Source: Hydrolagus colliei | Lineage: Eukaryota | DNA: 64,000 nucleotides | NCBI GenBank assembly: GCA_035084275.1 | Contig: CM068756.1 | Coordinates: 8,494,001-8,558,000, forward strand | Direction: 5' to 3' | Shown here: positions 14,167 through 46,376 of the stretch, piece by piece | How positions within the stretch are numbered: the first letter of the stretch is position 1 | Layout of the letters: every line of letters starts with the position of its first letter | The notes under the pieces: generated by a model | What the model was told of the DNA's origin: nothing | The model's input: the letters and a program-made list of their open reading frames with translations, nothing else | Database searches by the model: none | Program-made: the position numbers and the translations under genes

Positions 14167-14172
14167 TTTATT
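14167..14172 (-). terminator. Candidate polyadenylation signal AATAAA for the long TOX3 isoform (3' UTR about 1.1 kb)
   Basis: TTTATT on the + strand at the end of a repeat-free, AT-rich stretch downstream of the stop; no transcript evidence. Confidence 0.45.
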
Positions 14173-15239
14173 ACAGCCAAAATAAGTAAATTTAAAGATC
14201 AGTTACAATACAGAAAGAAAACTTGAGTTTCTGAATCAAGAAACACATTGGTTTTACTGAAAGATGGATCTGTTAAATGTCAGCTATCATTTTCCAATAA
14301 TTAAACCTTAAATAAGACCACATTTTAATACAAAAAATTAAATACAGACAAAAGTAAAAATATTAAACATTATTGATTTTGGTTTACAGGCTATTTTACT
14401 AGCCATCTCTAACTTGGCTACTGCATTAAAGAGGAGCTTTTTAAAAGCATTTGACCTTATACACAGAATTCTCCTTTAAAGGAGGCACAGTTAAATTGAG
14501 CACACTATGCTAAGACATTGCCATACAAAAGCAATTTCTACAGTACAGTACATAGTAAAATAACTCTCTTTTTGGTTGCAGAACAAATGCATGAAACTAA
14601 CAATGATAAAAGTATTAACATATGGATGCCACACAACTGTTTGAATACATAATGAATCTGGGTTTCTTAAGAACTTAAAAAAATAATTACATCCAAGAAA
14701 CCAAAGTTCTTACACTTGGTCATTGTGTACATTATGTTTGAATGAGAACAATTTCTGGGAACATAAAACCATCCCCTTTAAAGCCACTCCAAAGTAATCT
14801 GAGCTATTATTAAAAAAATGTAGTTAGCATTCCATTTAAATATTATGTTTCACTCAGTACCTTAATCCTTGACTGGCCACAATGACATCACTGTCACAAA
14901 AAAGTAGTTTTTTTTTTCCATCTGTATCTTCTCACAGTCTTCAGCAATCATGCAGAGGCTTGTCATTTACTAAAAGCCATGCCCTTTAAGTTCATGTCAA
15001 ACAAAATAATCATCTGAAGCTACATTACACAATGTAAAATGGCTAGCTCTCCAGGCACTGGCAGAATGGCAGGTGGGCCTAAAGAAAGTCTGTACTGCCT
15101 GTCATTGGAAAGCCTTCTGAAGTTGGTGCCCGTGTAGTTACAAGGAAACAAAGCATGTCAGACTGCCTTTGAGAACATCTTCTTGGCAGTGCGTCTGACA
15201 AATGCTGCGTTTTGGCTACAAAACATCGATGGCAAATCT

Positions 15240-15300
15240 TCACTTCACAGGAGCAGCATTGCTCTGATTACGAGAGACAACCCACGCCGTGAAGACATCC
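15240..15300 (-). CDS. TOX3: TOX3 terminal coding exon 9 (61 nt; (R)DVFTAWVVSRNQSNAAPVK*)
   Basis: Acceptor ttttacag; completes the phase-2 codon AG+G; resembles the TOX4 end [19 protein letters not shown]; TGA at 15240-15242. Confidence 0.9.
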
Positions 15301-16964
15301 CTGTAAAAGACACAAGATTTTAACCTTATTGCAATTACATTTAATCTGAATGAAACATTCCACAAATATTATTACAGGCCCTTAGGCATTGTAGCACCTA
15401 TTCGAAAGCCAGTTAGATAATTAAACTCTATTCTTTCTTCTCTCTCTCTGCCAATATATCTGGACCACAACACGAGAAAGAAAAGGTCACTTGAGCAATA
15501 GATTGAAATTAGATTTTAGTGATAACAAGCATCTTAACCTTTTCAAGGCTAGGCCTGCATGTTTTAATTTAATTAAGCTTGAAAAAAAGTTTATGGTAGA
15601 GTTAAAATCAAAGTTTGAATGCACACTTGGTGATTTGCCTCTGGATTTACCACAATCCCTTTCCTTGCATTAGAATTTCAAATCCATGAATATATATCAA
15701 TATTTTCTAGCAGAGATAACATCGCATCATGCTGGCACTTTTATAATTGCTCAATAAAATGGTCACGCATTGGTATGATTATGGTAACTCAACTGGCAAA
15801 TAAGACCTAATCAGCAGTAATAACATTGGAATTGCACTGTAAACACATCATGTATAATGTTTCAAAGTAGATCTGAACTGTAACTGGGAACCTCTATTCA
15901 CAATAAACATCACAATCTGACGCTGTTAAAACCAGAAAAGCATAGTATTGATAATGATTTTTTTTTTGCTAATTTGGTAACCACATTTCATGCTCCACCA
16001 CTGACTGAAAATCATCAAACCTCACATTACACCCTTTGCTCTTGAAACAGATCGTGTAGAATGGGGCAAGCAGGAAATACCAAACTCTAAATGTGCAGCA
16101 CACTCCTACGCACCAGGTACATCACTCAAAACACATCAGGTTGATATTTGTAGATTCTATTAACCTTTTATTTCCTGATCTATTTACAGTATGGCAATGG
16201 TGAAATTTCACAATGAACTAATGATCATGTTAAGACCAAGTCAGAATGAGAAACTTGCACACTGATACACATCTGCAGAGTGATTAGAAACACAACACTA
16301 TTTACAGTAGTATTAGAGGACTGATGTTTTTTCTTAACATTTTCAAAATCTACCAGATTTGCTTATGTTAAGAAATGTGTCCTGCTGTTCACAAAAAGTG
16401 ACTCAACAGTGAAAATATCAGCAAATAATTTTAGTTTTCAATGATTGAGACCCACAGAATTCACTAAGAATCCATTCCACAGAAGCAATTTTTTTTATAA
16501 CACACACTCACCCAATATGCTGAGCTTTCATTAATGAGAAACATTAGTCTTTAAATTCAGAAGTTGCGGCGTATATATGTATTTCTGTATTACAAGGCTT
16601 GATGGGATAATCAGTATTTGATCGGTTTTAAACTGACAGTGATTGATGATTGAAATTACAAGTACTAAAACAAAATTGGTACATTAAGATCACAATGCAT
16701 CTTAATGTGTTGCAAGACAATGGAAAAGTAATACCAAGCCCATCTCTGCCTTTAAAACGGGTTTTAAAAACTTGAATTGCATGACCTACCACTGCAGTTC
16801 AAAACTTTGTGAATTAGAGACTTTTAGCTGAAAATATGTTGTAGACTTGGTTTGATATTTTTGTTTGTTTCTGTCAGCTAAGTGTGCCTTCAAAAATATC
16901 GAAAATATCTTTATTTAATCTGAATGTAATTGATCTGATAAAACAGGTATATGTGAAATATTAC

Positions 16965-17140
16965 CTGCAGTGGTTAACTACACACCCGCTGCTACAGTAT
17001 TCATTATCCCACTCCACACTCTGGATTGGTGGATTTGTGCAGCCAGTCCTCATGCATCGTATTGGAGTGGTAGCACCCACAGGAGCTGGTATGGGAGAGG
17101 TGATGACAGGCTGGACTTCGGGTAGAGACGGTGAAAAGGT
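16965..17140 (-). CDS. TOX3: TOX3 coding exon 8 (176 nt; TFSPSLPEVQPVITSPIPAPVGATTPIRCMRTGCTNPPIQSVEWDNEYCSSGCVVNHCR)
   Basis: Not in the ORF track; translated by hand. Acceptor ttccag, donor CAG|gtaata, in frame with exon 7. Resembles the TOX4 C-terminal CVRSGCENPP...[16 protein letters not shown] motif. Confidence 0.9.
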
Positions 17141-20100: not shown

Positions 20101-21653
20101 AGAGCTCAATGAAAGAAGGTGGATCGTTGTAATTTCAAGTACTCAAAGAACATACAGTAAAACATATAGTTTAAACATATAGCTTACTACGTAAGCCACT
20201 TATCTATTCTGCACAACACTTTTACTGAGGATTCAATTTGGCTGAGTTCCATACTCCAAACAAGCTACTGTATTGAATTGATGCTAAGGACTGTGGTACG
20301 AAACTGCTTTACAATTTATTTTGATAAACAAAAACACGTCATCATTAAATGTTCTCAGGCAATTCATTTGACGGCCATTAAGAGTTCTAATGTTCTCCAC
20401 AAGTCAGTCACCCTGCTCTTTAATAACATTACAAATTCAACCAACAGGGGAGCTTGCGTAGCGTTATCCTCAGTCCTTAGTCAGAGTGATTAAGAGCGGA
20501 GAATGTGAATCCAGATTCCAGTTTCAATTGCTCTACCAACTCCTTAACCAGTCACAAAGTAATTCAAGTACTATTCTAATTTAAAACACAAAAACATGTC
20601 AGTGTTTGCAGCTCCAAGATACAATCCATCCTAATCCCAAATCCTTGCTCATTCCCCATACCCTCCTTCGCCTGTGTGTGTTTGTCTAATTCTTTTCTGA
20701 ATGCTTTTGTATTAAATTAATTGTTCTATTTAACATTAGCAAAGCATTTCACAAACTAAATACAGTACTGTAAAACAAATTTGTTTCACCAAACTTGTTA
20801 GTGGAATGTAGTTGCTGGAGAGTTTGGAAAAATAGTATTTAATTTGCAATATTTCTTAGCAGGATTTCTTATGGTTTCTCAATAGAATTTCCATCACTAA
20901 GAATAGAAAAGTGCAGTATAGTTTATGTAGAATTTTTAGATAAATGTACTATGTTAATTAAATATCTCTCATGGTTGTTGATGAGATATTGCTGTGTGCA
21001 AATTGCCTGGCATGTTTGCTTACAAATGCACAATCACTACACTTCACAGTAAAATCTTGTGAAGTGCTTTGAGATGTTTCAACAATGTGTTAACTTACTG
21101 TACTAAACGCAAAGTTATATATAAAATTATATTAAATATAACTGCACCCAATTACCACTCATTTCTTTAACGTTGCATCTTTTATTTAAACAAATGGCTG
21201 AATTGTTTTTGAACAGTTTCTTCAAAGAACTAGATTATAAAGAAAGATGAAGGAGATCTCATCGTTGTACAAAATGTGTTTTATACACAGGGCAGAACAG
21301 AAATAAACATCTCTATTTCACATCGACGTCAATACCTTTATTGAACTGTAATGATTTTTTTGGTGGGTGGAGCAGGAAATCTACATTGGGATCATCCTTT
21401 CTCAAAGCACTGCAGAATATTGCGGAGTAAAAACGTTTTTCATTCAGAACAGACAAAGCACTTTGCGATGTCTGGAAGACTTGAAAAGCGCTATACCAAA
21501 CGCAAGGATTATTATTATTTTTAGATCATTAATTAATACATCAGATTTACCAACATTACACACAGTTCCCAGTCACCCCTGATGGGCGATATGTGCCAGG
21601 ATTAGGTCACATGTGACTGGCATTAAAGTTTCATAATTTGAATGCTTACTGAC

Positions 21654-21817
21654 CTGCGGCAATATTTGGGTCTGGGCCTGGGTTTGCAGCGGAGATTGCT
21701 GTTGCTGCTGGGCTGGCTGTGGACTTGACCGCGTGGGGATCGGAGAGGTGATCTGCGTGGCCACCGCCGACTGCGACGGGACAGGGGAATGCTGAGGCGG
21801 CGAGTGCTGAGGTGGGG

Positions 21818-21848
<31 letters not shown>

Positions 21849-21981
21849 CTGCTGCTGCTGTTGCAGTATTTGCTGTTTTTGCATGTGCTGGAGCTGCATT
21901 TGCTGTAACTGCTGCTGGATCTGCTGCTGGATCTGCTGCTGCTGGAGCTGCTGCTGCATGTGCTGTTGCATCTGTTGCTGC

Positions 21982-22014
<33 letters not shown>

Positions 22015-22466
22015 ATTTGGTGGTGCTGCATGTGCTGCTGCTGCTGCTGGATTTGGTGCTGTTGCTGTTGCTGGATCTGCTGGTGTTGCATTTGCTGCTG
22101 CATCTGCTGCTGCATCTGCTGCTGCTGGAAGTGCTGCAACTGCTGCTGCTGCATCTGCTGCATGTGATGTTGCTGCGGCTGCAGCGGGGGGCTGAGCTGG
22201 GGCGACGGTGGATTGGGGACCATGTTCGGTGACATGTTGGCCGCCATGTTAACCGAAGACACCAGTTGATTGGCTTGCAAGGGCAACCTCAGCGGCTTGG
22301 GGGCTATTGCCCTCGGCAGCGTCTGTTGAAGAGACTGGGCCGAGGCCGAGGCGGGTCCAAGCTGAGAAAGTGGGGAATTCATAAGGAGGGACGATGAAAG
22401 GCTGGTCGACGCCAACGTCTGTTGGACAGAACGCATGGTCTGAGCTTCGGCAGATTCTGCTGCGGC
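21654..22466 (-). CDS. TOX3: TOX3 coding exon 7 (813 nt; [20 protein letters not shown]...polyQ...TQILPQ)
   Basis: Start [15 protein letters not shown] motif, polyglutamine region and QITSPIP motif are TOX3-like; acceptor cctag, donor CAG|gtcagt. Without splicing the frame continues to a stop at 21573-21575. Confidence 0.94.
21819..22180 (-). repeat. Interrupted (CAG/CAA)n coding repeat (polyQ) in exon 7
   Basis: (CTG)n-rich tract on the + strand, broken by Met, His, Ile and Leu codons. Confidence 0.95.
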
Positions 22467-24874: not shown

Positions 24875-24955
24875 CTTTGAAACAAGGCTGGCTCTGTAAG
24901 CAGCAAGAGCTTTTAGGTATTCTTTTTTGGCAGCTTCAGTTTTCCTTTTGTAGAC
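24875..24955 (-). CDS. TOX3: TOX3 coding exon 6 (81 nt; HMG box helix 3, [27 protein letters not shown])
   Basis: Manual translation matches the end of the TOX3 HMG box; acceptor ctag, donor AAG|gtagga. Confidence 0.97.
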
Positions 24956-25494: not shown

Positions 25495-25722
25495 CTGCTT
25501 TTGTTCCTCTCCCAGACTGTCCCACATGGAAGCCACAATTTTAGAAACTTCTCCAAATGTAGCATTTGGGTTTTGTCCTTTAATGGCAGCTTGAGTGTCC
25601 CTGAAGAACAGCGCATAGGCTGAAACCGGCTTCTGGGGTTCGTTGGGATCTTTCTTCTTCTTTTTCTTTGGTGTCTTCGGTTTTTTCCCCGAATCCCCTG
25701 CAGCTCGTTTTTCAACACTTAC
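25495..25722 (-). CDS. TOX3: TOX3 coding exon 5 (228 nt; basic NLS plus N-terminal part of the HMG box)
   Basis: [76 protein letters not shown]; acceptor acag, donor CAG|gtaaca. Confidence 0.98.
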
Positions 25723-26564: not shown

Positions 26565-26834
26565 CCTGTTGAATTCCTCAGGATCATCGTCATTTACAGA
26601 GCTGGAAGGAGATGGGGTAGCGGACTTGCTAGCAGGGGGTGAGGGTGAACTGTGTGGCATGTTAGCACCTCCTAAAGTTAACCCCAGCTGTGCACTCAGC
26701 TGAGATTGGTTTATAGTGGTCAGCTGACTGTGTTGCATCCTTCCTGTTTGATTAACATCGGTCAAGTGAACAACCGACCTCATGCCCATGGTAGGATCAT
26801 GGTGGTACTGGGAAACTTGCGTCTGACCCAGGTC
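26565..26834 (-). CDS. TOX3: TOX3 coding exon 4 (270 nt, [10 protein letters not shown]...[22 protein letters not shown])
   Basis: Motifs [16 protein letters not shown] and [17 protein letters not shown] match TOX3; acceptor gcag, donor AGG|gtatgt. Confidence 0.96.
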
Positions 26835-36750: not shown

Positions 36751-37214
36751 GGAGATTTAAAGTTTACAGTGGGTGAGTTTACGGGTGTCAGAATTTCTAA
36801 GAAGACCCACATTTGTGACTCCGATCAAAAGTTCCAAAGTTTCAAGATCACAATTGTTACCTTTATTTTTCCAAAGCTCATTTTATATACTGCCATGCTT
36901 GCATTTGATATACCGCTTTATCATGTCAAAACGTCCCATTTGGCTGCCAAGAAACATCTTTGCAGAGTCACTCACTGCATGAACGTCACTTCCACTTTAT
37001 CTGGGTGACGTTATACACAAGATGTTTGCAGAACATCAGTGTCTCCTCATCAAGCAAATCAAACTTCTCTTTCACAGTGAAAGGATGATTGTGTACATGT
37101 GAGTTTAAGGAATGATGGGGCTATTTATAATTTGTCATTTTTGACTTAAACTTATGTGTCTGTAAAATTTCTGATGAGGAAAGGTTGGGAATAAATCAAC
37201 AGGTACTTAGCATT

Positions 37215-38297
37215 ATATACATGCTCCCTCTGGGCAATGTCATCCATATACATGCTCCCTCTGGGCAATGTCATCCGCAAACAGGGGGTAAATTTCCACA
37301 TGTATGCGGACGACACCCAGCTGTACCTCTCTGCCTCATCCCTCAACCCCCAGACCATCGATGTTCTGACAGCATGTTTGTCCGACATCAAGTCCTGGAG
37401 GAGGGACAATTTCCTCCAATTGAACGTGAGCAAAACCGAGGCCCTCCTGATTGGCTCAAGCCAGCGCCTCCGCACATCGGGCGCTGCCAGCATCAACATC
37501 CAAGGCTGTACTCTCCACCTCACAAAGCCAGTCAGGAACCTCGGCATCACGTTCGACCCCAAACTCTCCTTCCTCCCCCATATCCACGCCTTGACCGGCA
37601 CCGCCTATTTCCACCTGCGCAACATTGCCAGGCTTCGCAACTATCTCACTCCCCACGCTGCCGAAACACTCGTGCATGCGTATATCACCTCACGGCTGGA
37701 CTATGGAAACTCTCTCCTTGTCGGCCTCCCCAGCTCCTCCATTCACCGGCTGCAGATCATCCAAAACTCTGCAGCCCGTGTACTATCCCGCACCTGCCTC
37801 CGCGACCACATGACCCCCACCCTCGCCCGTCTCCATTGTCTCCCCATCCCCCAAATGATCGAGTTCAAGATCCTCGTCCTCACCTTCAAGGCCTTACACA
37901 GCTTTGCCCCGTTCTATCTTTCCGACCTACTCTCCCCCTACAAGCCCACCCAGACCCTCCGTTCAGCAGGACTTGGCTTGCTCCAAGCCCCCCGCCCGAA
38001 CCACCCCACCACCGGAGGCTGGGCCTTCAGTTTTTCCGCTCCCACCCTTTGGAACTCCATCCCCCAATTCCTCCGCCTTGTTTCCTCCCTTTCCTCTTTC
38101 AAGGCCGGTTTGAAGACTTTCCTTTTCAACTGTGCCTTCTGTTCCCCCCCTAATTTTTCGACCTCCCCTACGTTTTTTACCCCTTCCCGAACACTTCCCT
38201 CCCATCTCGGGTCACACGCCTCCTGTGCAGCGCCTTGTGACGTCCTCCCGACGTGAAAGGCGCTCTATAAGTGCAATTTGTTGTTGTTGTTGTTATT
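37215..38297 (+). mobile_element. 5'-truncated L2-clade LINE (RT C-terminal half plus 3' tail), antisense in TOX3 intron 3
   Basis: Open frame with FHMYADDTQLY, LNVSKTE, VRNLGITFD, SRLDYGNSLL, APTLWNSIP, FKAGLKTFLF; ends in a stem-loop and (TTG)n tail; ATTATAT at 37212-37218 and 38298-38304 as possible TSD. Confidence 0.95.
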
Positions 38298-38529: not shown

Positions 38530-38781
38530 CACAGACAAGCCATTGTTCAGGAGTCCACCATCTTGGTCCATAATACTTCTGGATATTGTGATGGAAGGCA
38601 GATCCAGGCTTTGTGGAGGAAAGTGGGGTGTGAATTCATTTCCCTGCGATGGCAGTGGATCATTAAGGCCTTGAAAAGCTGACACCACATCTGTTAGTCC
38701 CAGAGTGGGGTCTGTTTCTGGTGGTGGGGTAATGGGTGGAATCTCAAATTCCTCATCCCCAAGGCTTGGAGTGTGGAATGT
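38530..38781 (-). CDS. TOX3: TOX3 coding exon 3 (252 nt, [21 protein letters not shown]...[28 protein letters not shown])
   Basis: TOX-family motifs [17 protein letters not shown] and [15 protein letters not shown]; acceptor tttag, donor GTG|gtaggt; phase 0/0. Confidence 0.96.
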
Positions 38782-43045: not shown

Positions 43046-44722
43046 TAATGGTTCTCCAGCATATAATGGCTTCAAAATGTAACCTTCAGTGAGCTGACAT
43101 ACTTTCGGCATGACCGTATCATATCACTGAGCAAGATACCAAATGTACATTTCACCTGGAAATGGTGCCATGTTAGGAGGATTTAAATGTTGGCCAGTAA
43201 ATATTTTAAATACATGTACACCAATTGCTAACAGACCAAAATGAAAGAAATCCCACTAAACCTTTAGATGGAAATAATAAGTTTTATTCACACCACCAAT
43301 TTCAAAAAGGCTATAAGATGTCCTCTGCACTTTTTTGTTAAATTACACACTCATCCCCATGTAAAATTGTAAAGGTTTCTATTTACTGAATCCAAAATTT
43401 CATCAATTCAAAAATCCAGACAATATTTGATTGTTGGAGTGAGGTGGCCCAGCCTTGTGTACAAACCACTGTATTTCAAAGTAATTTCAACTAAATTGTT
43501 TTAAGATTTAAGGGTACTAATCTGAACACTTAAATTATAAAACTTTCCTTTCAAATCTGAGACAGGGATGTGTGGGAATAAAGCACCAAATGTCTCGCAT
43601 AATAAATGATCACAGCTGGAATTGGATGGTTTCTGAACAGCTGCTGAAAGACAAGCTTTGATAAGTGTTTAGTAATTCCAATGTACAAAAGCTATAGAAT
43701 TGAGAAGCATCATGTTGCTCTTTACAGATGGGATCTGGACATCGTAACGAAGATTTCTGGGATCTAAGCCAAACTAGGTCTTTTGTTTCCAGCAATTTGA
43801 GCTGTACTAGCAGTTACTAGCAATCTTAGTAATGAATCATAGCTTTTTGATTATTATAACAATGGATTGGTTATATCAGCGACTGAAGTATAAACCCTAG
43901 TGCTTACAGTGGTATCGCGATGCAATCTGGTGAAATTCATCCCAAGACTTTCATCTATTTCCAAGGGCAATATTCCACAGAGCAAATGTGTTTTAACTGT
44001 TTTCGTTAATCCTGAAAATTATTTTTCATCACAAAAATCATCTATATACTAAGTGAGCACAGCATTCTTTTTAAGCATAGACTTATTTTGCGTAAAATGC
44101 AAAACTGGTGACAATTGTTTGATGTAATCATCTCATTACATGTGATGTAAGCATCTCACCAGGATAGCAGCACTAGTTAAACTAGGTAGTACATCAAAGA
44201 TGTGGCTCTCTCTAACAAGAATTGTCAGTGCTAACGTGTTTTTAAACTGAAACCTCATGGTACCATTAAACACATGTAGTGTTCGCACTGAATGATCACG
44301 TACCTAATTCAACTGAGGTCCTCATTGAAGTACAGGGACAAATACTTTGCTTTTCTAGAATTCATTATTTGAGACCAATAGTAGTTACTATAAAAGCATA
44401 ATTCAGATCCAACTTTAAAATTATACTCATCATACATACAATCAAAACTGTTCAGCCAACCAGCTCAATTCAACAACCAATCCCTGATAACAACCACCAT
44501 GGAACAGCCTGAACGGAGTTTGCATAATGAACTACCTCTTCTCAACAATCATTCATCTAATGCAACCAGTGACCACTTTTTGTTAGTCCTTTATACCCCT
44601 GTGCTTTCGCACCAACATATTTTTATTTCTGTATTTAATAGATTTTCATTGACTGTGAATTGTTGAAATAAAACTGCAAATAGGGCCTTTACCAGTCATT
44701 TTATTTTTCTATTACTTTGCTG

Positions 44723-45607
44723 TAGGGTCCGGCGATATATCGATATATCGCTAAAACCCGATATAATTTTCGGATCGATATGTCGATATAGGCATTTCAA
44801 AAATATAGATATCGAAAAGTCGATATATCGAGGTAAAAAATCGGAATGCACGCACACTGAACTACAAGACCCAGAATGCTCATCTCTATACACAATGCAC
44901 AGACCGAGGTGCAAAGCTGCCATATTGTATTCATAGTCCTCGAATACAATATACAGGTATGCAAGGGGTGGGGGGGGGGAGAGACGGCTTTGTGGGGGGG
45001 TGGGGTGAGGGGGAGAGAGACAGCTGGGGGGGGGGAGGGGGAGAGAGACGGCTGGGGGGGGTGGGGAGGGGGAGTGAGACGGCTGTAGGGGTGGGGAGGG
45101 GGAGAGAGACGGCTGGGGGGGTGGAGGGGGAGAGAGACGGCTGGGTGGGAGGGGGAGAGAGACGGCTGGGGGGTGGGGGGAGAGGGGGAGAGAGACGACT
45201 GGGGGGGGGAAGAAAGATGGCTGGGGGGGAGGGGGAGAGAGACGGCTGGTGGGGGAGGGGGAGCGAGACGACAGGGGTGGGTGGGGTGGGAGAGAGGGAC
45301 GGCGGTGGGGGGAGAGACGGGGTGGATGTGATAATATACAGATAGATAGAGATGGGGGGTATGTGGGAGAGGAGAAGGACAGAGACACAGACAGAAAAAC
45401 ACAGAGATGGAGAGAGTCAGAGACACAGAAAGAGAAAGATATTTACCTCCTGAGGAGATAGGCCCGAAATGCACGAGCACCCGGAATGTGCGTGCACGCG
45501 CGCGCGCATGCGCAGTACGGAAAACCCGAAAATATCGATATTTCGGTATCTCGATATGAGCCCATCGATATATCTAAATTGGAAAATTTCCATATCGACG
45601 GACCCTA
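44723..45607 (-). mobile_element. Non-autonomous hAT DNA transposon, copy 2, 885 bp, inverted relative to copy 1, in TOX3 intron 2
   Basis: TIRs TAGGGTCCGGCGATAT...ATATCGACGGACCCTA; 8-bp TSD ctttgctg (44715-44722) / ctttgcta (45608-45615); colinear with the reverse complement of copy 1. Confidence 0.92.
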
Positions 45608-46043
45608 CTTTGCTACAAGTTTAGCATTCCAGTCACAGTATTTTTCAAGCTCAGTGTCATGAGGTTTCACTCGAAAAATAACTATTTTAAATGCAAGGAA
45701 AAGGATGAACTGAATAGCTCATTTAGACTCTGTGTGACTTCTGTATTGGGCAAACCATTTCTAATAAACAATATATTATTTACTGAAGGTCAAATTGATT
45801 CTTAGCATGGATGGTATTTAATGCATACTGACATTAGCATTTAGTTAAATACTGCAAAAAAATATCAATTACAACAGTGTGACATGATTTTTTTTAATAC
45901 ACTATTTTGGCTGAAGGCAAAATTGCTGAATGGTAAAAATTATATTGCCGTGCAAGTCAATACAAAGGACAACACTAAACTAATTATACACAGTAATTTT
46001 ATCCATCTGCATTGTAGACAATAATTATGCGTAAGATTATATT

Positions 46044-46310: not shown

Positions 46311-46376
46311 CTCAGTGCTGGTCAAAAAAGCGTGGCTTGGGTCTGTCATGTTCATGTAGTTATTGTTGCCTGCAAA
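46311..46376 (-). CDS. TOX3: TOX3 coding exon 2 (66 nt, FAGNNNYMNMTDPSHAFLTSTE)
   Basis: Manual translation resembles human TOX3 exon 2 (FGNNNNYMNMAEANNAFFAASE). Acceptor ccag after a pyrimidine tract; donor GAG|gcaagt (GC type); phase 0/0. Confidence 0.9.

Follow-up and report, generated by a model that had tools for sequence, protein, structure and literature searches.

Introduction

The closest described system to the locus reported here is the C-terminal domain of TOX4. Residues 571-621 of TOX4 bind zinc through C572, C577, C592 and C596, and the helix formed by residues 597-612 docks on helices 1 and 3 of PNUTS with an affinity of 0.3 nM (PMC12278311). The PNUTS:Tox4 complex structure with the TOX4 C-terminal zinc-binding domain is available as PDB 9CI7, and Drosophila Tox4 (CG12104) binds PNUTS via the same C-terminus (PMC12278311). 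We refer to this zinc-binding and PNUTS-docking unit as the module. Membership in the PP1 complex is treated as a property of TOX4 in PMC13710973, PMC12166427, PMC10247741 and PMC8975821, and the main text of PMC12278311 makes no mention of TOX3, TOX2 or paralogues, some of which its supplementary alignments may include. As described for the HeLa complexome, human TOX3 appears with PPP1R10 and WDR82 (PMC3494656); since human TOX3 is without the module, this listing may be explained by peptides assigned to the wrong family member, or TOX3 may associate by a second route. Here we describe a TOX3 gene from the chimaera Hydrolagus colliei whose last two exons encode a TOX4-like tail, and compare it with these systems.

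Results

The TOX3 gene of Hydrolagus colliei continues beyond the polyglutamine exon

We analyzed 64,000 nucleotides of Hydrolagus colliei DNA (the window, meaning this whole stretch), which correspond to contig C23:8494001-8558000 of a 1.0-Gb genome. The features of the gene are as follows, in window coordinates unless a contig is given:

C23:8571187-8571288, outside the window and 13 kb past its edge: TOX3 exon 1
46311..46376, minus strand: exon 2, with an AG acceptor and a GC donor
38530..38781, minus strand: exon 3
26565..26834, minus strand: exon 4
25495..25722, minus strand: exon 5, encoding a basic stretch and most of the HMG box
24875..24955, minus strand: exon 6, encoding the end of the HMG box
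21654..22466, minus strand: exon 7, the polyglutamine exon, with a phase-0 donor (CAG/GT)
21573..21653, minus strand: start of intron 7, where read-through would give 26 extra residues and then a stop
16965..17140, minus strand: exon 8 (176 nt, phase 0 to 2, AG acceptor, GT donor), encoding a Pro-rich linker, the zinc loop and the start of the predicted binding helix
17056, 17041, 16996 and 16984: the Cys codons of exon 8, equivalent to TOX4 C572, C577, C592 and C596
15240..15300, minus strand: coding part of exon 9 (AG acceptor, TGA at 15242-15240), encoding the remainder of the predicted PNUTS-binding helix and the stop
14167..15239, minus strand: likely 3' UTR, with candidate polyadenylation signals at 14329 and 14172 and partial cover by contigs of sequencing run X1

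AG/GT splice sites are present in exons 3-9, and the joined exons 2-9 encode 648 residues with no internal stop, of which 78 are contributed by exons 8 and 9 in frame with exon 7. The original prediction had placed two extra exons at 16965-17140 and 15240-15300, with GT-AG sites and in frame with the polyglutamine exon, exactly as recovered here. Intron 2 is a GC-AG intron whose GC donor lies at 46310-46303 on the minus strand. Elsewhere in the window, an RVT_1 reverse-transcriptase fragment lies within intron 3 (37195-38253, plus strand, E=7.7e-7) and is likely a LINE remnant, and an inverted repeat pair (1855-2589 and 44720-45609) is 79-87% identical with a G-rich low-complexity core.

Outside the polyglutamine exon, the window exons share 92-100% identity with Callorhinchus milii TOX3, which indicates that the source is a holocephalan near, and not the same as, Callorhinchus; identity in the N-terminal/HMG part is 99%. 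Pfam assigns an HMG box (PF00505) to the near-identical Callorhinchus protein, and in the window gene the polyglutamine exon comes after the HMG box, as in TOX3. A gene tree of 34 rows was built from the N-terminus and HMG box, several rows being assigned to paralogues by motifs that we take to be diagnostic. In this tree the window groups with Callorhinchus TOX3 as its sister (95/85) and is excluded from the TOX4 (100/100, including Narcine and catshark), TOX (100/97) and TOX2 (100/99) clades; TOX3 as a whole is monophyletic in only 21% of bootstrap trees. By sequence comparison the window gene is the TOX3 orthologue and not TOX4, in line with its initial description as TOX3-like.

The surroundings of the gene were also compared. 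RB-family exons lie at C23:8802319-8803178 on the plus strand, about 230 kb past TOX3 exon 1. The genome has further TOX loci on C2, with CHD7-like exons nearby, and on C26, with CHD6-like and RB-family exons nearby. The human arrangement is SALL1-TOX3-CHD9-RBL2, TOX2-CHD6-RBL1 and TOX-CHD7, and the RB, CHD6-like and CHD7-like neighbours of the three TOX loci fit parts of it; CHD9 itself had no match in the Hydrolagus colliei genome by BRK search.

The tail resembles the zinc- and PNUTS-binding domain of TOX4

Exon 8 alone matches the TOX4 chain 9CI7_B (E=1.4e-11), the sole significant match of the 2 listed, and basking-shark TOX3 aligns to the same chain at E=3.9e-20. Residue roles described in PMC12278311 were mapped onto the window through the basking-shark alignment, in which the last 51 residues of the tail correspond to the TOX4 C-terminal domain. 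All four zinc cysteines are kept with the spacing of C572/C577/C592/C596, together with all eight hydrophobic PNUTS-contact residues (W587, Y591, V597, V598, V604, F605, W608, V609). Three of the five polar contacts are also kept (D588, R612, N613). D586 is replaced conservatively by E, and K585 by V; position 585 is variable, Pro being the commonest residue (35/72 module-bearing representatives). The 9CI7_B match and the complete set of zinc cysteines uphold the original prediction of a TOX4-type module, which needs correction on one point: it had expected a Cys/His module, and the structure as described in PMC12278311 shows a Cys4 site.

The residue at the position of TOX4-595 is Gly in the window and in Callorhinchus and in 0 of 72 module-bearing representatives. 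This position is not among the contacts given for TOX4 in the text of PMC12278311, and a Gly here may weaken the start of the helix. Over the whole tail, identity is 75/78 with Callorhinchus TOX3, 66/78 with basking shark, 65/78 with stingray and 50/78 with thorny skate. A search of all six frames of the window gave a single copy of the motif C-x4-C-x9-W-x3-[YF]-C-x3-C, against none in 100 mononucleotide shuffles; as the motif was defined after the match was seen, this result excludes gross chance and no more. The exact module spacing is found in 72 of 149 cluster representatives.

Structure prediction was performed with AlphaFold2 (60-row alignment) on the Callorhinchus orthologue, which is 75/78 identical in the tail, and not on the window's own protein. 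Over residues 621-660 the model has pLDDT values of 89-94, and it places a helix at 642-662. It matches 9CI7_B with a TM score of 0.81 by target length (rmsd 4.5, E=2e-4), which is largely expected given 60% identity. No Pfam family covers exon 8, and an ESM Atlas search gave matches to clusters below 0.9 alone. From these comparisons, the tail is predicted to bind one zinc ion and the N-terminal domain of PNUTS.

The module is ancient and was probably lost from TOX3 on the bony-vertebrate stem

The sample of chondrichthyan TOX3 comprised 40 proteins from 16 species. The module is present in 18 of these proteins, from at least 10 of the species, including Callorhinchus (RefSeq XP_007887638.1). 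The sample drew on 15 of the 24 members of one main cluster and 15 of the 19 of the other, so that the six species in which the module was not found may have further isoforms. No variation in the four cysteines occurs across 10 species, and the 18 module-bearing proteins are free of frameshifts and stops. In Heterodontus francisci, exon 8 is absent from all four TOX3 isoforms compared (X1-X4), possibly an independent loss or an annotation gap.

By both pattern and phmmer searches, the module was found in 0 of 159 bony-vertebrate TOX3 proteins. This set combines 112 proteins from the best 120 of 1699 matches with 47 cluster members, and its entries are non-independent; it spans sturgeon, paddlefish, eels, tarpon, coelacanth, lungfish, amphibians, squamates, birds and mammals, bichir, gar and bowfin being outside it. 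Such an absence makes loss on the bony-vertebrate stem likely, and a single loss there is the most economical reading of the sequences, the dating being based on annotated proteins and not on DNA. The proposal that the tail was lost in mammals is accordingly wrong: sturgeon, paddlefish, eels, coelacanth and lungfish are all represented among the 159 TOX3 proteins without it.

Outside TOX3, the module is present in TOX proteins of amphioxus, the hemichordate Saccoglossus, lamprey and hagfish, and an intact module is also found in lungfish TOX4 and Narcine TOX4-like proteins. The module is likely ancestral to TOX genes on this distribution, and the suggestion of an ancestral architecture finds support in the amphioxus, Saccoglossus, lamprey and hagfish proteins. 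Protein searches with the tail alone (11 and 23 candidates scored, 2 and 3 matches) are weak evidence on range because most TOX4 proteins were missed.

The motif survives in complementary halves in TOX and TOX2

Three TOX loci (C23, C2 and C26) came up in the Hydrolagus colliei genome with each of three queries, two of them exons and the third a catshark TOX4. The TOX of this genome keeps the first three cysteines and has lost the fourth cysteine and the helix; in its TOX2 the first two cysteines are absent and the last two are kept. The two paralogues consequently hold complementary halves of the motif, which agrees with the initial description of the TOX and TOX2 tails as degenerate; human TOX3 ends in VSIF, likewise as described. 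In both TOX and TOX2, a last exon follows exon 8, which has phase 0-2 (149 and 140 nt). In a tree of 21 tails, the window and five chondrichthyan TOX3 tails form a group (SH-aLRT 99) separate from Narcine TOX4, with scant resolution outside that group. Given the exon phases common to TOX and TOX2, the tail tree and the range of the module, vertical inheritance of a nine-exon gene is the simplest reading.

Searches of the genome for TOX4, METTL3, SPT16, CHD8 and PNUTS found none of them. Their joint absence suggests either that the assembly lacks small chromosomes or that the search has limits, and the TOX4 blank says little, as METTL3, SPT16, CHD8 and PNUTS are also unfound and CHD9 was missed by BRK search. 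The METTL3 query matched a single-exon frame and a multi-exon gene, which we take to be METTL4-like and MT-A70, respectively. An MT-A70 gene at L022:778-2820 (C25, minus strand) has one 680-residue open frame with an intronless METTL4-type look and is possibly retroposed.

The loci bear on one alternative in particular, namely that holocephalans have lost TOX4 and that TOX3, as their sole carrier of an intact module, fills the TOX slot of the PNUTS-PP1-WDR82 complex. We consider this unlikely. Three TOX loci alone were detected, also with the catshark TOX4 query, and no Callorhinchus TOX4 is among the proteins compared, a set that was not chosen for TOX4; yet METTL3, SPT16, CHD8 and PNUTS are equally unfound, which leaves TOX4 replacement unsupported for chimaeras. 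Moreover, elasmobranchs possess TOX4, whose module is intact in Narcine, and the holocephalan-specific Gly suggests that constraint was relaxed, not tightened. A broader version, in which TOX3 replaces TOX4 in all cartilaginous fishes, was ruled out by the existence of Narcine TOX4-like proteins with an intact module and of catshark tox4b; as the TOX4 of this ray keeps its module, there is no replacement by TOX3 there.

Exon 8 is likely a cassette exon

Chondrichthyan and bony-vertebrate isoforms are database predictions, and were compared at the exon 7 boundary. Among the 40 chondrichthyan TOX3 models, 18 have the module, 13 (from 11 species) skip exon 8 and 9 read into intron 7. In the skip form, exon 7 is joined to exon 9 in another frame and the protein ends ten residues on; the window's own exons would give such an end (10 residues, ...LHGVGCLS). 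Eight of the nine read-through models stop after four residues (VSNF, VSKY, VSNY). Read-through of the exon 7 donor in the window would start V-S-K-H and run for 26 residues, versus 4 in most shark and ray read-through isoforms. The same place is where 121 of the 159 TOX3 proteins of bony vertebrates terminate, in VSIF or VSIY, and the alternative TOX3 ends of amniotes (mammal, bird) diverge at the same Gln. Taken together, the chondrichthyan isoform types and the bony-vertebrate ends suggest that exon 8 is likely a cassette exon and that the human end is likely a read-through of the old donor. Unspliced RNA, or homology with proteins of bony vertebrates, may be the source of the read-through models themselves. 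In mammals and birds, alternative TOX3 C-termini use the exon 7 donor to reach a last exon that is short and in which no similarity to the zinc module can be detected.

Read evidence was available from run X1, a run from a relative that is RNA by our guess; the stretch used for read comparison contained exons 8 and 9 and stopped short of exon 7. Over this stretch, neither a read nor a contig spanned a junction that involves exon 8. Exon 8 is uncovered in all three runs compared, DNA runs included, which is evidence neither way. A 551-nt X1 contig covers 15303-14772 and then has 26 unmatched letters at the exon 9 acceptor, and a DNA-type contig from the same organism, from which the orientation of the X1 contig was inferred, continues from exon 9 into the intron. 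The X1 contig fits a splice into exon 9, maybe from exon 7, with no joint to exon 8.

These observations are where a second alternative draws its evidence. Exons 8 and 9 could be a remnant that is decaying or is seldom included, with a main product that skips exon 8 or stops in intron 7 and a tail that has ceased to bind PNUTS; the 22 of 40 chondrichthyan models without the module, the Gly at position 595 and the X1 contig that enters exon 9 from sequence not matched to exon 8 would all agree with it. Such decay is improbable given that this holocephalan and basking shark share 66 of the 78 tail residues, and the invariance of all four cysteines in 10 species and the lack of any frameshift or stop among the 18 module-bearing proteins argue against it as well.

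Discussion

We propose, and consider probable, that exons 8 and 9 are the ancestral TOX module, kept by TOX3 as a predicted PNUTS-docking tail and lost on the bony-vertebrate stem. The TOX3 tail would bind one zinc ion via its four cysteines and dock its helix on the PNUTS N-terminal domain, like TOX4, and in its full-length form TOX3 would recruit the PNUTS-PP1-WDR82 phosphatase to chromatin. Exons 8-9 would have been present in all four paralogues once the vertebrate duplications had taken place. TOX would later have lost the fourth cysteine and the helix and TOX2 the first two cysteines, with TOX4 keeping the module and TOX3 retaining it in cartilaginous fishes. There, alternative splicing of exon 8 would yield TOX3 with and without the module, and in the bony-vertebrate ancestor the isoform with read-through of the exon 7 donor would have become fixed, leaving the VSIF end.

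We extend this proposal more tentatively, to a reading that is possible and that we hold with some doubt. TOX3 may be a second, tissue-restricted recruiter of PNUTS-PP1 in cartilaginous fishes, with exon 8 splicing as the switch, and the bony ancestor may have frozen the off form. TOX, TOX2 and TOX3 would then have lost the link by different lesions, leaving TOX4 as sole carrier; in chimaeras, TOX3 is maybe the only intact carrier.

That the gene is really TOX4, or a TOX3 with a TOX4 tail recently acquired by conversion or exon shuffling, is very hard to credit and largely refuted by sequence: an intact module is known among jawed vertebrates from TOX4 alone, as far as the text of PMC12278311 goes, and our four queries found no TOX4 locus in the Hydrolagus colliei genome, but the N-terminal/HMG part is Callorhinchus TOX3 at 99% and outside the 100/100 TOX4 clade, the RB-family gene about 230 kb past exon 1 is placed like RBL2 beside human TOX3, the tail groups with five chondrichthyan TOX3 (SH-aLRT 99) and not with Narcine TOX4, and the exon 8 phase is common to TOX and TOX2.

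The original account held that routine annotation in non-mammalian TOX3 would make the tail less novel, and the tail is indeed routinely annotated in cartilaginous-fish TOX3 (18 of the 40 proteins compared), including XP_007887638.1. With the tail already in RefSeq, the gain is interpretive. Our literature search, which fell short of most subscription papers, found no paper noting the cartilaginous-fish TOX3 tail or tying it to PNUTS.

Under the proposed history, PNUTS binding is likely an ancestral TOX property and not a TOX4 invention, and the lineage-specifying paralogues TOX, TOX2 and TOX3 would have been freed from the phosphatase step by step. The family would be a tidy example of ohnologues losing a domain reciprocally, by a plausible route through splicing, which is unsurprising but of interest to specialists in PP1-PNUTS and TOX. 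Read-through of the old exon 7 donor would also account for the odd four-residue end of human TOX3. In addition, shark TOX3 would provide a natural chimera in which to test the effect of the module on a TOX factor, and raises the question of whether recruitment of PNUTS-PP1 makes a cell-type activator a regulator of pausing and elongation.

Comparison with known systems

The nearest relatives are the annotated chondrichthyan TOX3 proteins (Callorhinchus XP_007887638.1, Cetorhinus XP_078399090.1, Hypanus XP_059848843.1), which represent the same gene with the same tail. The window differs from them by species-level substitutions and by an intron 7 read-through without the early stop of most sharks and rays. 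In TOX3 of bony vertebrates (human, chicken, frog, lungfish, coelacanth, sturgeon), the N-terminus, HMG box and polyglutamine exon are orthologous, but the protein ends four residues past the exon 7 donor (VSIF/VSIY), the module being absent in 159 proteins. In TOX proteins of invertebrates and jawless fishes (Drosophila Tox4/CG12104, amphioxus, Saccoglossus, lamprey, hagfish), the C-terminal module is intact, as in the window, whereas the genes are pre-duplication or cyclostome-specific and not strict TOX3 orthologues.

The TOX4 domain itself (9CI7) has the same Cys4 spacing, all eight hydrophobic contacts and the same predicted fold. Between TOX4 571-613 and the window tail, 32 of 43 residues are identical (wild-type Cys counted at 601), and the window tail has V for K585, E for D586 and G for E595. 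Unlike in TOX4, the module here is attached to a TOX3 with a long polyglutamine exon, is carried by a likely cassette exon, and has a binding activity that is predicted.
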